Translations under genes and position numbers: made by a program | NCBI GenBank assembly: GCA_965214705.1 | Contig: OZ243972.1 | Location: forward strand, 1,984,001-2,048,000 | Reading direction: 5' to 3' | Length of the DNA: 64,000 nucleotides | Origin: Alphaproteobacteria bacterium | Lineage (GTDB): Bacteria > Pseudomonadota > Alphaproteobacteria > UBA828 | Notes under the pieces: model-generated | Databases searched by the model: none | What the model was told of the DNA's origin: nothing | What the model saw: the letters and a program-made list of their open reading frames with translations, nothing else | Shown: positions 47,225 to 58,837 of the stretch, one piece after another | How the letters are laid out: the number at the start of each line of letters is the position of its first letter | Position numbering within the stretch: position 1 is the stretch's first letter

Positions 47225-48013
47225 TCACAAGCCGAACGCCTCGGTCAGGGGACCGCGCCACCCGTGATTGGTCATGTCCAGTTGGATCGGAGTCACCGAT
47301 ATGGCGTTCTCGTGGATCGCATGGAGATCGGTCCCGGGGTGTTTGCCCCCGTCCTTGTAGCTGATCTCGACCCAGAAATAGGGCACGTGGCGCGTGTCGA
47401 TCCGCCCGTCGATGGTGAAGGAGCCCGGCGGACGCTGCCCCTGCGTCGTGATATGGACACCGCTCACCGCTTCCGGTGGCGCATCCGGGAAGTTGACGTT
47501 GACCAGCGTGCCCGAGGGCCAGTCCGGCAGGCGCACGAGGGTCTCGATCACGTCAGGCGCGAAGGCTTCCGCCGTGGCCCAGAGCGCTTCGCCCCCCATG
47601 GTGAACACTTGGCTGAGCGCGATCGAGGGGATGCCGAGCAGAGTTCCCTCCATCGCCGCGGCGATGGTGCCCGAATAGGTCATATCCTCCGCGAGGTTCG
47701 CGCCGCGATTGACGCCGGAGAGCAGGACCGTGGGCGGGCTTTCGGTCATCAGTTCGTGGATCGCCATCAGCGCGCAGTCGGTGGGCGTGCCGTGCACCGC
47801 ATAGCGCTTCTCCCCGATCTGGCGCAGGCGGATCGGCGTGTGCATCGAAATGGAATGGCCGGCGCCGCTCCGCTCGTGATCCGGGGCGACGACCCAGACG
47901 TCGTCCGTCAGGCTTCGCGCGGTCGCCTCGAGTATCTTGAGTCCCCTGGCGTGGATGCCGTCGTCGTTGGTGACGAGGATGCGGTGGTGGGAGAGATCGC
48001 TCTCCGCTGCCAT
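47225..48013 (-). CDS. surE: SurE 5'/3'-nucleotidase/phosphatase (start may be 48118)
   Basis: ILVTNDDGI, VVAP..ERSG, GTPTDC, SGVNRGANL, YSGTIAAA. Confidence 0.93.
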   Translation of the reverse strand: MAAESDLSHHRILVTNDDGIHARGLKILEATARSLTDDVWVVAPDHERSGAGHSISMHTPIRLRQIGEKRYAVHGTPTDCALMAIHELMTESPPTVLLSGVNRGANLAEDMTYSGTIAAAMEGTLLGIPSIALSQVFTMGGEALWATAEAFAPDVIETLVRLPDWPSGTLVNVNFPDAPPEAVSGVHITTQGQRPPGSFTIDGRIDTRHVPYFWVEISYKDGGKHPGTDLHAIHENAISVTPIQLDMTNHGWRGPLTEAFGL

Positions 48014-48159
48014 GGCGGGGGTCCTTTGGGCGCTCGTGTCAGGGGCCGCAGTCTCTTCGGGGCGTCCGTCGGGTGCAAGATCGATAGCCAGATTGACAGC
48101 CGAGAGGCCAATCCGCATGTTGGCGCCTCCGTTCCGGCGAGCCTGCCCTGGGGGAAAGT

Positions 48160-48912
48160 GTGGCCAAGCTTTACGTGGACACGGACAAGTACGGCGACCA
48201 GGCACACTCGCCCACCGTCGAGGCCTTCCACAGCGCGATCAAAGACCTGGTAAGGCGCCGCCTCGACGAGAGCGGGGTCGACTGGAACAGCTTCGTCTTC
48301 GACAAGTCCTACGATCTCATCACCGCGGCCGATTTCGAGGAAATCGAGAGGAAACTGCTCGACGCCGGGCACCGCTACGACTTCTCGGCCGTGATCTCGG
48401 TGAACGAGCGGCCCGAGGCCTACAAGCCCGCCGAAGGCATCCTGGGCGACGACCCTGACTGGACCATGGAGCATCCGGACGCGCCCTCCGGCGAAGCCGA
48501 TGCGGAGGGCCGCGCGCTCTGCGGCGTCGGTGACAACGTGATGCGCGTCTCCGAGAATACCGTGGGCACCGCGCGCTACGTCCGTTCCAGCAGCCAGGTC
48601 ATGCACTACCTCGGCGACGGCGTGCCGCCGGAGACCATCGCCATCATCGACGACTCCGGCGGCACACTGACGGCGCCGATCCTGGAGCAATTCACCGGCA
48701 TCATCTGCATGGGCGGTACCGTGCGCTCCCATCTCGGCATCTTGTCGCGGGAATACGGCATTCCCTGCTTCATGAACGCCAAGATCACCGGGATCAAAGA
48801 GGGCCAGCGGGTGGAGATGGAAACGGCGGCGGCGGCCAAGACGGCTGAGGCCTACCAGAAGGGCGAGGAGATGACCGCCAACATCTGGAAGCTGGTCCGG
48901 GAGGCTTCGTGA
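48160..48912 (+). CDS. stand-alone PEP-utilising phospho-His swivel domain protein
   Basis: GIICMGGTVRSHLGILSREYGIPC; unknown ~110-aa N-terminus. Confidence 0.8.
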   Translation: MAKLYVDTDKYGDQAHSPTVEAFHSAIKDLVRRRLDESGVDWNSFVFDKSYDLITAADFEEIERKLLDAGHRYDFSAVISVNERPEAYKPAEGILGDDPDWTMEHPDAPSGEADAEGRALCGVGDNVMRVSENTVGTARYVRSSSQVMHYLGDGVPPETIAIIDDSGGTLTAPILEQFTGIICMGGTVRSHLGILSREYGIPCFMNAKITGIKEGQRVEMETAAAAKTAEAYQKGEEMTANIWKLVREAS

Positions 48913-56205: not shown

Positions 56206-57666
56206 ATGGCGCACATCGAATTCCTCGACGAGACCATGCGGGACGGGCAGCAGAGCCTGTGGGGCATGCGCATGCAGGCCGGCATGGCGCTCCCCATTGC
56301 CCCGGTGATCGACCGGGTCGGCTACCGCGTGGTGGACCTCACCGGCTCCAGCCTCTTCGAGGTGCTGATCCGCCATTGCCGCGAGAACCCGTGGGAGGGC
56401 CTCGACCTCTTGGTCGACGCCATGCCCAACAGCACGATTCGCGGCGGCATGCGCAGCAACGCGAGCGTCACCTTTGGCGTAACGCCCGATGCGCTTATGG
56501 ACGTCTGGATGCGGCAGCTCTGCGTGCACGGCTGCCGCAGCTTCTGGATTTACGACGTGCTCTTCAACATCGACAAGACCCACCGCCTCGCCAAGGTGGC
56601 CAAGGAGTTCGGCGCGGAGGTGGCAGGCGCCATCATGTTCACGCTGAGCCCCGTGCATACCGACGACTACTACGCCGACAAGGCAGACAAGCTCTCAGCC
56701 TCGCCGGATATCGACACCATCCTGCTTTACGACACTGGCGGTGTGCTGGAGCCCGACCGCATGCACACGCTGGTGCCGGCCATTATGGCGAAGGCGCGCG
56801 GCAAGCCCATCGAGTTCCACTCGAATAATCTGCTGGGCGCCTCCGGCCGCGCCTACGTTGAGGCAATCGAGCTCGGCATCCACATTCTGCACACCGCCTG
56901 CGGGCCGATGGCGAACGGCCCGTCGGTCCCCTCGGTCGAGGTGATGACGCGGAACGTCGAACACCTTGGCCACACCCACAACATCGACTGCTCGCTGCTA
57001 CCCGAGATCGCCGAGCACTTCGAGCGCGTGGCCGGAGCTGCGGGTTTCTCTATCGGCGTGCCCCAGGAATACGATCTCTTCTCGGTGCGGCATCAGGTGC
57101 CGGGCGGGATGATGGGCACGCTCAAGGCGCAGCTCGTCCAGCACGAGATGGCGGACCGGCTCGACGACGTGCTGGAGGAGACCGGCCGCGTGCGCCGCGA
57201 GCTCGGCTACCCCGGTATGGCGACGCCCTTCTCCCAGCTCGTCGGCACCCTCGCTGTGCTCAACATCGTAAGCGGCGAGCGCTACGCCGTGATTCCCGAC
57301 GAGGTGATCCAGTATGCCGGCGGGCACTACGGTGAGCCGGTAGCGCCCATCGACGAAGACGTGCTGGACCGGATCATGGCCGCACCGCGTGCCAGGGAAG
57401 TGCTGGCCGAGCCGCCGGAGCAGCCCACGGTTGCCGAACTGCGCAGGCGCCACGGCACCGACGATGACGACGAGCTGATCCTGCGCGCTCTGGTGCCGGC
57501 GGCAGACCTCGAAAGGATGCGGGCCGCTGGCCCGGTGAAGCGGGACTTCCCGATCCTGTCCACGCCGGAGCTCGAGCACGTGCGCAAACTCATGATGCTG
57601 TCGACCTCGAAGTATGTCGAGGTGCAGACCGCGACGCTCTCGGTCTCGCTGCGACGGGCGGGCTGA
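56206..57666 (+). CDS. carboxyltransferase of the pyruvate carboxylase B / OadA type, without biotinyl domain
   Basis: DETMRDGQQSL, RENPWE, HQVPGGM, LGYP..TPFSQ. Confidence 0.88.
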   Translation: MAHIEFLDETMRDGQQSLWGMRMQAGMALPIAPVIDRVGYRVVDLTGSSLFEVLIRHCRENPWEGLDLLVDAMPNSTIRGGMRSNASVTFGVTPDALMDVWMRQLCVHGCRSFWIYDVLFNIDKTHRLAKVAKEFGAEVAGAIMFTLSPVHTDDYYADKADKLSASPDIDTILLYDTGGVLEPDRMHTLVPAIMAKARGKPIEFHSNNLLGASGRAYVEAIELGIHILHTACGPMANGPSVPSVEVMTRNVEHLGHTHNIDCSLLPEIAEHFERVAGAAGFSIGVPQEYDLFSVRHQVPGGMMGTLKAQLVQHEMADRLDDVLEETGRVRRELGYPGMATPFSQLVGTLAVLNIVSGERYAVIPDEVIQYAGGHYGEPVAPIDEDVLDRIMAAPRAREVLAEPPEQPTVAELRRRHGTDDDDELILRALVPAADLERMRAAGPVKRDFPILSTPELEHVRKLMMLSTSKYVEVQTATLSVSLRRAG

Positions 57667-57667
57667 C

Positions 57668-58837
57668 GTGCGCCGCGCCTGTATCGTCGATGTCGTCCGC
57701 ACCCCCTTCGCCAAGGGGCGCGAAGGGGGCGCGCTGAGCGCGGTTCACCCGGTGGACCTGCTCGCGAAGACGCTTGAGGGCCTGGTCACGCGCACGGGCA
57801 TCGACCCCGGCGCGGTCGACGACGTGATTGCGGGTTGCGTCATTCAAGTCGGCGAGCAGGCCGCCAACGTCGGCCGCCAGGCCTGGCTCGCCGCGGGCTT
57901 CCCCGAGGGCGTTCCCGCCGTCACCATCGACCGGAAGTGCGGCTCGGCCCAGCAGGCCATGGACTTTGCGGCCCAAGGCGTGATGGCGGGCGCCTACGAT
58001 CTCGCCGTCGCCTGCGGGGTCGAGATGATGAGTCGTGTGCCGATGGGCAGCAACCGGCGCGGCAAGGACCATCTGGGGCCGATGCTACGCCGGCGCTACG
58101 CCGACGGCCTGGTGCACCAGGGCATCTCCGCCGAGCTGATCGCGGCCCGCTGGGGGCTCGCGCGCGCCGACCTCGACGCCTATGCGCTACGCTCGCACCG
58201 GCACGCGGCGGCGGCCGAGGATCGCGGGCTGTTCGCCCGCGATATCGTGCCCATCGACGGGACCTCGACGGACGAGGGCATCCGCCGCAACACGAGCGCC
58301 GAGAGGCTTGCCGCGCTGGAGCCGGCGTTCGTGGATGCCGACACGGCCGAGCGCTTTCCCGGAATCGGTTGGGTGGTGACGGCGGGCAATTCGAGCCAGG
58401 TCTCCGACGGCGCATCGGCGATGTTGATCGCATCGGAAGCGGCGGCTGAGCGGCTGGACCTGACGCCGCGCGCTGCCATCACCCACTTCGCGGTCTGCGG
58501 AGACGATCCCGTGCTCATGCTGACCGGGATCATCCCGGCGACGGAAAAGCTGCTGGCGCGGAGCGGCCGGACCCTCGACGATATCGACTGCTTCGAGGTC
58601 AACGAGGCCTTCGCCTCCGTCGTCCTGGCCTGGACGGAATCGTTGGGAGCCGCTCTCGACCGCGTCAACGTCAACGGCGGCGCGATCGCCCTGGGTCATC
58701 CCGTCGGCGCCTCGGGCGGGCGGCTTACGGCCAACCTGATCGGTAGCCTGGAAGAGACCGGCGGACGGCTCGGTCTTCAGACCATGTGCGAGAGCGGCGG
58801 CATGGCCAACGCGACGCTCATCGAGCGCTTGGGTTGA
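57668..58837 (+). CDS. thiolase
   Basis: DRKCGSAQQA, VNEAFA, GAIALGHP, CESGG. Confidence 0.95.
   Translation: MRRACIVDVVRTPFAKGREGGALSAVHPVDLLAKTLEGLVTRTGIDPGAVDDVIAGCVIQVGEQAANVGRQAWLAAGFPEGVPAVTIDRKCGSAQQAMDFAAQGVMAGAYDLAVACGVEMMSRVPMGSNRRGKDHLGPMLRRRYADGLVHQGISAELIAARWGLARADLDAYALRSHRHAAAAEDRGLFARDIVPIDGTSTDEGIRRNTSAERLAALEPAFVDADTAERFPGIGWVVTAGNSSQVSDGASAMLIASEAAAERLDLTPRAAITHFAVCGDDPVLMLTGIIPATEKLLARSGRTLDDIDCFEVNEAFASVVLAWTESLGAALDRVNVNGGAIALGHPVGASGGRLTANLIGSLEETGGRLGLQTMCESGGMANATLIERLG

Follow-up and report, generated by a model that had tools for sequence, protein, structure and literature searches.

The DNA stretch analyzed here, hereafter the window, comprises 64,000 nucleotides of an alphaproteobacterium of the UBA828 lineage (positions 1,984,001 to 2,048,000 of contig OZ243972.1, assembly GCA_965214705.1), and it contains a putative ketone-catabolic operon that includes a short relative of pyruvate, phosphate dikinase (PPDK). 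The window has a GC content of approximately 65–70% and consists of alphaproteobacterial DNA, its nearest public relatives being Rhodospirillales and Alphaproteobacteria metagenome-assembled genomes (MAGs). The listing of open reading frames (ORFs) and the scans with Pfam and NCBIfam models revealed nine translationally coupled plus-strand genes at 48160–58837 and a surE gene transcribed divergently from them. The features are as follows, with protein lengths in amino acids (aa).

47225–48013, minus strand: surE paralogue of 262 aa with its ATG at 48013 (PF01975, 1.1e-58; NF001490)
48014–48159: divergent intergenic region of 146 bp, the presumed shared control region
48160–48912, plus strand: Swv250, stand-alone phospho-histidine swivel protein (PF00391)
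48909–50465, plus strand: Unk518, family-less protein of 518 aa without a Pfam or NCBIfam match
50507–52000, plus strand: FadD-type AMP-forming acyl-CoA ligase (AMP-binding, 1.6e-68, and AMP-binding_C)
52004–52606, plus strand: family-less protein of 200 aa without a Pfam or NCBIfam match
52609–54369, plus strand: short PPDK of 586 aa with its ATG at 52609 (PPDK_N and PEP-utilizers; NF004531)
54366–54836, plus strand: biotin carboxyl carrier protein (BCCP) with biotinyl-Lys113 in a VMKL motif (Biotin_lipoyl, 1.5e-14; TIGR00531, 105 bits)
54833–56194, plus strand: biotin carboxylase (BC) of the ATP-grasp type (NF006367, 608 bits against a cut-off of 597)
56206–57666, plus strand: carboxyltransferase (CT) of the pyruvate-carboxylase/OadA type (PYC_OADA, 3.7e-27)
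57668–58837, plus strand: degradative-type thiolase of 389 aa, most likely starting at GTG 57668 (Thiolase_N and Thiolase_C; TIGR01930, 428 bits against 240)

The operon order is accordingly Swv250, Unk518, CoA ligase, 200-aa protein, short PPDK, BCCP, BC, CT, and thiolase. Three of the junctions are 4-nt overlaps, four are gaps of 1, 2, 3, and 11 nt, and one is a gap of 41 nt. An initial annotation of the window had described a tightly coupled operon of these genes with surE on the opposite strand, and both statements were borne out, the 517-aa protein of that annotation being Unk518. In a scan for promoter and terminator consensus sequences, nothing promoter-like was found in 48014–48159, the scan being uninformative. 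Contigs of two metatranscriptome libraries, one from a sponge and one from a coral, mapped to many parts of the operon, and single contigs spanned the Swv250/Unk518, short PPDK/BCCP, and BC/CT junctions. As these contigs were mostly 88–95% alike, they derive from relatives, and because the libraries may contain DNA, they are no proof of transcription or of a single transcript.

The short PPDK combines an ATP-grasp nucleotide domain (PPDK_N, 3e-40), a swivel His domain (PEP-utilizers, 6e-23), and a tail of approximately 100 aa, and its GGATSH motif places His435 at codon 53911. As its alignment to solved PPDKs stops near chain residue 546 of 874, the TIM barrel that binds phosphoenolpyruvate (PEP) or pyruvate is absent, in agreement with the annotated PPDK that has a TSH motif and lacks its pyruvate-binding barrel. 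With NF004531, the NCBIfam model for short PPDKs of 534 positions, the protein scored 709 bits against a cut-off of 456, while its 500 bits with TIGR01828, the model of the full PPDK, lay under the cut-off of 843. We take NF004531 to be the family of Rv1127c (VadK) of Mycobacterium tuberculosis. Orthologues of 570–598 aa were found in Roseiarcus, Acetobacteraceae, a gammaproteobacterial MAG, Novosphingobium, and Rhodococcus. A full-length PPDK is encoded by an 898-codon open frame on another contig of the window's genome (G000 contig C2:337685–339307, minus strand), so the canonical enzyme is present in this organism too. The orthologues in distant loci, together with this separate PPDK, ruled out a recent shortening of the housekeeping enzyme as the origin of the short PPDK.

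In the case of Swv250, a conserved N-terminal domain (approximately residues 1–90) was followed by a PEP-utilizers mobile domain, which matched PF00391 with 29 bits against a cut-off of 23.1 and contains the sequence GGTVRSH. Residues R189-S190-H191 were invariant in all 12 aligned orthologues, His191 lying at codon 48730, and a sequence search of the PDB returned no relative at E ≤ 0.01.

Neither Unk518 nor six relatives tested matched any Pfam or NCBIfam family. The NCBIfam models of PRK08296 did not match Unk518, and models of the PRK08296 type touched only the swivel stretch. When 1.84 billion cluster representatives were searched exhaustively with HMMER, 440 proteins came out at E ≤ 0.001, among them relatives of approximately 375 aa that covered residues 15–370 with 25–35% identity. 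A metagenome-rich protein collection held 982 homologue clusters. Among the 120 homologues listed, all were at least 64% identical to Unk518 and came from different classes, identity between distant classes being 64–70%, and any name attached to them was 'hypothetical protein'. The AlphaFold2 model of Unk518, built from a 50-sequence alignment, was confident (pLDDT 93.5, pTM 0.93). A Foldseek search of the PDB with this model gave nothing at E ≤ 0.001 (best E 0.24, TM ≤ 0.12), and the best Z against 48,161 chains in VIA-align was 2.3, with the reservation that a single-domain fold match could be missed with a model of more than 400 residues. The ESM Atlas gave no usable match. Across Pfam, NCBIfam, Foldseek, and VIA-align, Unk518 therefore matched no characterised enzyme, family, or solved fold. 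In a genome of the same family, a homologue with one in-frame TGA was observed (G429:C315:1984–3522), which a sequencing error, a pseudogene, or recoding might explain.

A gene for a protein of 200–202 aa lies directly upstream of the short PPDK in every locus. The 200-aa protein was modeled as an N-terminal winged helix with a helical part (AlphaFold2 pLDDT 92.2), and the fold search with this model returned only local winged-helix matches of approximately 70 residues, none of the matches at E ≤ 0.001 spanning the full length. An alignment of 25 proteobacterial and actinomycetotal sequences had 40 invariant columns. Many of these are polar (NDH, HTVWF..HE), including H9, R60, N113-D114-H115, H180, H187-E188, R192, and R198. 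This exceeds the conservation to be expected of a passive tether, and the invariant polar residues suggest a catalytic or metal-binding site rather than a simple adaptor. When homologues were searched with the window protein and with a Rhodococcus orthologue, no mycobacterial protein was among the best 120 rows of either search; the relatives listed came from Alpha- and Gammaproteobacteria with the window query and from Rhodococcus, Amycolatopsis, Pseudonocardia, and similar genera with the Rhodococcus query.

Gene fusions connect three of these four proteins. Unk518 is fused to a C-terminal 200-aa protein in all six tested proteins of 717–728 aa and in the 717-codon ORF of locus L014. An N-terminal swivel is fused to an Unk-like domain in proteins P0181 and P0197 and in a 542-aa Rhodococcus protein (locus L019). 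A triple fusion of swivel, Unk, and 200-aa protein was found in P0272 and in a 793-aa 'PEP-utilizing enzyme' on plasmid pROB02 of R. opacus B4. The predicted complex of Unk518 and Swv250 scored 0.86, compared with 0.00 for the best of three controls, a mark that 58 of 80 solved complexes and 2 of 110 mismatched pairs attained. Contact agreement between the runs was at least 80%, with a partner pLDDT of at least 84. On the Swv250 side, the predicted interface contains residues 190–191 with the catalytic-type His. On the Unk518 side, it contains R197, one of four invariant columns of the alignment (A1), and the nearly invariant L41, P43, G109, A183, F190, and L191. As neither Unk518 nor Swv250 has a solved relative, the score is not a memory of a known complex. 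The fusions and the predicted complex support Unk518 as the putative acceptor or substrate module of a multi-subunit dikinase, a role that the initial annotation had proposed for it.

Related gene sets were also observed away from the operon. Upstream of the cluster in L019 (7902–12272), BLASTP identified a small swivel protein, a 398-aa Unk-like protein, and the 542-aa swivel-Unk fusion, and the same layout was seen by annotation only in L021 (7308–10879). On pROB02 (L022:305–12575), the triple fusion adjoins a tyrosine-type phosphatase, with a short PPDK and cytochrome P450, aldehyde dehydrogenase (ALDH), and alcohol dehydrogenase (ADH) genes nearby; this set lacks a carboxylase. Additional paralogous sets of kinase genes are present on the Rhodococcus plasmids. 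The kinase module thus looks reusable in several pathways.

The conservation of the cluster was determined from 17 loci obtained in a one-genome-per-species scan for Unk518 and from three loci added from plasmids, namely, Novosphingobium resinovorum pSA1, Rhodococcus oxybenzonivorans pRB98, and R. pyridinivorans pA; one of all these loci was a 3-kb contig. Roseiarcus fermentans DSM 24875, R. oxybenzonivorans S2-17, and R. pyridinivorans P23 are culturable, non-pathogenic carriers of the cluster. Neighbors were counted by tblastn with the window proteins in the 19 other loci with enough flank, and the counts are conditional on Unk518. The swivel protein, Unk518, the 200-aa protein (fused in L014), the short PPDK, BCCP, and BC were present in 19/19 loci. 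The CT was found in 18, the exception, L016, stopping at a contig end, and a CoA ligase of the operon type was also found in 18. A classical thiolase was present in 15/19; on the Rhodococcus plasmids pRB98 and pA, it is replaced by an OB-fold/SCP-x-type thiolase pair. Synteny of the cluster extends over Alphaproteobacteria, Gammaproteobacteria, and Actinomycetota (Rhodococcus megaplasmids), so the grouping of genes on which the initial annotation had built its proposal holds across these lineages and is not a product of chance. Locus L014 (62–8007) is the only one of these loci with the Unk518-200-aa fusion; it has no CoA ligase, and its upstream genes encode an SCP-x-type thiolase, an enoyl-CoA hydratase, a methylmalonyl-CoA-mutase-family protein, and a cytochrome P450. 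Within the genus, 10 of 20 genomes carried Unk518, and within the family, 19 of 36 did; it was found in none of 24 other relatives and none of 400 genomes sampled across the phylum. This patchy carriage fits an accessory catabolic trait.

The steps suggested by the gene content resemble the hydroxyphenylethanone pathway, which has been described in recent papers. In R. rhodochrous GD02, 4-hydroxyacetophenone or acetovanillone receives a phosphate from the dikinase HpeHI, and the biotin enzyme HpeCBA accepts the ketone for carboxylation only in this phosphorylated form. HpeD then removes the phosphate, and HpeE and HpeF complete the route via a CoA ester (PMC9618137). Homologous genes, acvABCDEF, were reported in Sphingobium SYK-6 (bioRxiv 10.1101/2022.04.28.489975). 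HpeHI is a split relative of rifampin phosphotransferase (RPH) (PMC12167813). In Novosphingobium, the same carboxylase is served by MarK (UPF0261), an unrelated single-protein kinase, so that two kinase types were counted in 2025 (PMC12624787).

The CT relates the window operon to these systems most directly. Its best named matches were pyruvate carboxylase subunit B and OadA, all below the curated cut-offs. A maximum-likelihood tree of 13 rows was midpoint-rooted, and the branch of OadA in it was long. The eight operon-type CTs formed a clade in this tree (100/99), which was sister (99/95) to three CTs of HpeHI-type and MarK-type clusters; the CT of a kinase-less Burkholderia cluster and Salmonella OadA fell outside these clades. 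The CT of an hpeHI-type cluster, located on a Rhizobium plasmid, shared 40% identity with the operon CT. With 38–40% identity to the CTs of both types and a separate sister clade, the operon CT is not orthologous to HpeA/AcvE. Judged from these comparisons, the CT is the nearest relative of the phospho-ketone carboxylases, yet not one of them. At the aligned positions of D17, K178, H207, and H209 of Vibrio cholerae OadA (2nx9), which we take to be the Asp, carbamylated Lys, His, and His of the metal site of OadA and pyruvate carboxylase, all six proteobacterial members of the operon type have D13, Y175, H205, and N207. In the two Rhodococcus CTs, Glu replaces Lys, giving E/H/H, and the Hpe-type, MarK-type, Burkholderia, and OadA rows keep the canonical K/H/H. 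An anaplerotic module, in which a split pyruvate or 2-oxoacid carboxylase would work with a PEP-forming enzyme, is almost certainly the wrong explanation, because, even though the best named CT matches and the NCBIfam name 'pyruvate, phosphate dikinase' of the kinase point to it, the PPDK has no pyruvate domain and a full-length PPDK lies elsewhere in the genome, the distribution is patchy and linked to a CoA ligase and a thiolase, and the scores, metal site, and tree position of the CT led to its rejection.

The other catabolic enzymes are less telling. The best solved relatives of the CoA ligase were FadD8 and a feruloyl-CoA synthetase, those of the thiolase were of the FadA and FadA5 type, and a Liv-type binding protein encoded nearby had only weak matches to solved relatives. 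These relatives give no discriminating clue to the substrate.

A temporary phosphate calls for a phosphatase in the pathway, and the cluster almost always has one beside it. The surE paralogue scored 330.5 bits with NF001490 against the equivalog cut-off of 233. A SurE, 61–67% identical between distant lineages, adjoins the cluster in 14/19 other loci and Y_phosphatase3 ('tyrosine-protein phosphatase') in 5/19, so that one or the other stands beside the cluster in 16/19. A second surE lies on contig C3 of the window's genome, Y_phosphatase3 was not found in that genome, and no HAD gene was among the genes scanned at 35922–63988. Because the neighborhood is conserved, a second surE exists elsewhere, and Y_phosphatase3 is missing, the divergent surE paralogue is probably the pathway phosphatase, standing in for HpeD as a non-orthologous enzyme. 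The tyrosine-phosphatase type in other lineages is a hint at an aryl phosphate.

The genes that surround the operon and surE in the window are as follows.

58847–59587, minus strand: SDR1, convergent short-chain dehydrogenase (adh_short_C2, 4.4e-56)
40608–47122, minus strand: genes downstream of surE, namely, the Liv-type binding protein, two permeases, two ATPases, and two genes of the acetoacetate decarboxylase (ADC) family
41421–42194 and 40608–41396, minus strand: the tandem ADC-family genes, at the end of the surE/ABC-transporter unit

SDR1 occupies the same place in 14/19 other loci with 61–97% identity, and in L020 it lies elsewhere at 27%. An ADC-family gene is in the fetched flank of 14/19 other loci, the window having two, and ADC-family genes outside the window include L013:3809–4546, L018:978–1634, and L041:2064–2975. 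Their role could be to feed the ketone into the pathway or to activate the ketone as an enamine, both being possibilities. On a Burkholderia plasmid, an ADC-family gene was observed approximately 5 kb upstream of the kinase-less CT-BCCP-BC trio, in a cluster that also contains carbonic anhydrase and biotin-synthesis genes. The flanks of the loci hold dehydrogenases, 3-hydroxyacyl-CoA dehydrogenase, P450s, acyl-CoA enzymes, and varied transporters. These neighbors vary by lineage, with Liv-type or sugar-type ABC transporters, P450/ALDH/ADH sets, and a methylmalonyl-CoA-mutase-like gene, and they point to no single substrate.

Among the known systems, the Hpe (hpeHICBADEF) and Acv (acvABCDEF with vceAB) routes are most like the operon in step order and gene layout. 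Shared with the operon are an ATP-dependent phospho-histidine dikinase, putative in the operon, the order BCCP-BC-CT with a PYC-type CT, a phosphatase, an AMP-forming ligase, and a C–C cleaving enzyme. The hpeHI-type and MarK-type plasmid clusters also have the order BCCP-BC-CT. The parts themselves differ. The Hpe/Acv kinase is the RPH-like pair HpeH/HpeI, whereas that of the operon would be derived from PPDK and consist of four proteins, with an acceptor domain that, unlike the Hpe/Acv one, has no detectable likeness to known domains; family scans found neither an HpeHI/AcvAB-type kinase nor a UPF0261 gene in the cluster. The phosphatase is of the SurE or Y_phosphatase3 type instead of the HAD/NagD type, the ligase is FadD-type instead of AcsA-type, the cleaving enzyme is a thiolase instead of a CouO-type hydrolase or VceAB, and the metal ligands of the CT are changed relative to the Hpe-type CT. 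The initial annotation had recognised no described pathway with this gene set. In the case of the gene set, this statement stood, since full-text literature searches found no paper describing it, these searches not extending to the supplements of the Hpe and MarK papers, which may list related clusters. In the case of the pathway logic, it did not, as Hpe/Acv has the same step order.

A similar exchange of parts is seen in the MarK clusters (N. aromaticivorans Saro_1862–1858), where the kinase has been exchanged for an unrelated one and both carboxylase and phosphatase are retained (PMC12624787). MarK consists of one UPF0261 protein, in contrast to the putative four-protein phospho-histidine system of the operon, and the CTs of the two are 38–40% identical. 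MarK-type clusters, with a Tm-1-like/UPF0261 kinase, BCCP, BC, CT, and HAD genes, were also found in Sphingomonas bisphenolicum AO1 (pBAR1, L023:4972–10357) and on a plasmid of Pseudomonas putida YC-AE1 (L024:3635–12225). Both strains degrade bisphenol A, and these clusters would fit 4-hydroxyacetophenone as an intermediate of its breakdown. In Aromatoleum aromaticum EbN1, XccABC of the p-ethylphenol/4-hydroxyacetophenone route is a biotin carboxylase trio followed by a CoA ligase (AcsA) and a thiolase (TioL) that release acetyl-CoA, enzyme types that the operon has as well. The EbN1 kinase is HpeHI-like, unlike that of the operon; the Xcc genes adjoin hpeHI homologues (PMC9618137).

The kinase itself can be compared with further systems. 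For the RPH-like small-molecule dikinases (PpsAB, CreHI, and HpeHI), the feature compared was a substrate-binding domain homologous to the rifampin-binding domain; the Unk518 model gave no such match to solved chains, nor did Unk518 match a PRK08296 model, although a match to one domain could escape a search with so large a model. The ATP-grasp nucleotide domain and the swivel phospho-histidine domain of the short PPDK are those of PPDK and PEP synthase, in which the acceptor site is a PEP/pyruvate TIM barrel; in the operon, it would lie on separate family-less proteins. A His-to-His transfer, as from EI to HPr in the phosphotransferase system, is possible in the operon kinase. VadK shares with the short PPDK the two-domain build and a small gene directly upstream. 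Its swivel residue His422 is the site of its autophosphorylation, and it binds Rv1126c, encoded in the same operon, tightly enough to co-purify with it, 2 M NaCl separating the two (PMC13400623). VadK is described as a regulatory kinase of the methylcitrate cycle; a swivel partner, a 518-aa partner, and a carboxylase, all three of which the operon has, are not part of that description. The full-text searches found no paper linking VadK-type kinases to an acetovanillone-type route.

Considering these results together, the operon probably, by a modest balance of the evidence, encodes the catabolism of a ketone by the Hpe/Acv logic with non-orthologous parts and would be a third version of this route, with a kinase of novel architecture; the comparison is one of sequences, neighborhoods, and predicted structures. 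The leading guess for the substrate is a phenolic or other hydroxylated methyl ketone, which the adjacent dehydrogenases would make from an alcohol. By homology, the ATP-grasp domain of the short PPDK would use ATP to load a swivel His, of which this protein carries one (His435), and the phosphoryl group would pass to His191 of Swv250. The 200-aa protein may tether the short PPDK to Unk518. From the fusions and the predicted complex, the phospho-swivel would dock on Unk518, the putative site of substrate binding and phosphorylation, most likely of a hydroxyl group. As members of their families, BC and BCCP would make carboxybiotin, and the diverged CT would carboxylate the phosphorylated ketone at the carbon adjacent to its carbonyl. 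The SurE paralogue, or Y_phosphatase3 in other lineages, would then remove the phosphate, as the conserved neighborhood suggests, after which the CoA ligase may activate the beta-keto acid and the thiolase may split it into acetyl-CoA and an acyl-CoA.

Several observations weigh against this reading. Two of the four CT metal ligands are replaced in the proteobacterial members, so the chemistry may differ from that of HpeA, or the CT may bind no metal. The textbook reaction of the ADC family is the reverse of ketone carboxylation, and ADC-family genes that recur near the cluster would undo this step. No aromatic ring-cleavage genes were found in any flank examined, and with the flank content described above, the substrate may be aliphatic or terpenoid and not phenolic. 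No phosphatase was found in the fetched flanks of L014, L015, and L016 (3/19). The short PPDK and Swv250 each carry a swivel His, so a relay between them has to be assumed, and the label 'Rv1126c-like', which the initial annotation had given to the 200-aa protein, rests on its size and its position upstream of the short PPDK. As the kinase module of R. opacus B4 stands without a carboxylase, kinase and carboxylase need not share an intermediate. Finally, VadK was interpreted by its authors as a regulatory histidine kinase that interacts with methylcitrate-cycle enzymes (PMC13400623).

Some of these observations would be accommodated by an enol phosphate. In this explanation, which we consider unlikely, the PPDK-derived kinase would turn an unfunctionalised methyl ketone (acetone, butanone, or a terpenoid) into an enol phosphate, the nucleophile for carboxylation, with Unk518 in place of the pyruvate barrel. 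The native reaction of PPDK, from which the kinase descends, makes an enol phosphate; the flanks, free of ring-cleavage genes, contain secondary-alcohol-type dehydrogenases, 3-hydroxyacyl-CoA dehydrogenase, and P450/ADH/ALDH sets, and a non-canonical CT metal site would suit a substrate whose enolisation departs from the usual one. However, the phosphatase would be superfluous if the phosphate left at carboxylation, yet it stands beside the cluster in 16/19 loci, and the ATP-dependent BC would be redundant if the cleavage of the enol phosphate drove the reaction. We know of no precedent for such a route.

It is quite unlikely that phosphorylation and carboxylation are separate steps of a longer pathway, in which the kinase and phosphatase would tag a hydroxylated intermediate for retention or elimination, as kinases tag intermediates in levulinate catabolism, and the carboxylase would act on another, unphosphorylated ketone. 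The kinase and phosphatase that R. opacus B4 has beside P450, ALDH, and ADH genes without a carboxylase would agree with such a division, as would the extra kinase sets of the Rhodococcus plasmids. Yet all 19 Unk518 loci interleave the kinase genes with the CoA ligase and have BCCP and BC directly after them in one coupled unit, and the CT clade is sister to CTs that need phosphorylated substrates.

A regulatory phosphorelay is improbable. Here, the short PPDK would be a protein histidine kinase that controls the carboxylase or other enzymes via Swv250, with Unk518 as target or sensor. The reported autophosphorylation of VadK and its interactions with methylcitrate-cycle enzymes (PMC13400623) favor this explanation, and the two serial His domains recall the relay from EI to HPr. 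It is countered by the 64–70% identity of Unk518 between distant classes among the homologues listed and by the swivel fusions in several lineages. Moreover, Unk518 is paired with small-molecule-type phosphatases in catabolic islands, and the cluster is an accessory trait, not a core regulator.

A bolder proposal goes beyond the ketone route by Hpe/Acv logic and is rather unlikely, though not negligible. The four proteins may form a new class of small-molecule dikinase with a PPDK core, a second, free swivel His, and an acceptor of unseen fold. Together with a CT without the carbamyl-lysine site, they would constitute a new carboxylase type for non-phenolic ketones, possibly acting via an enol phosphate. 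The VadK/Rv1126c pair would then be derived from such a kinase or be part of one and would not be purely regulatory.

The strategy to phosphorylate, carboxylate, and dephosphorylate a ketone was recognised only in 2022, and two kinase solutions are in print. A third kinase, if true, would mean that this strategy is modular and far more widespread than the lignin-ketone cases. The operon also provides a testable biochemical context for the orphan family of Unk518 and its relatives of approximately 375 aa, with approximately 1000 metagenomic homologue clusters, and for the short-PPDK/VadK family, the only studied member of which has been read as a regulator, and it points to a CT lineage with a rebuilt active site. 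Depending on the substrate, it could add a new route by which marine symbionts and bacteria of soil and peat assimilate ketones, as well as a new kinase-carboxylase pair for biocatalysis.

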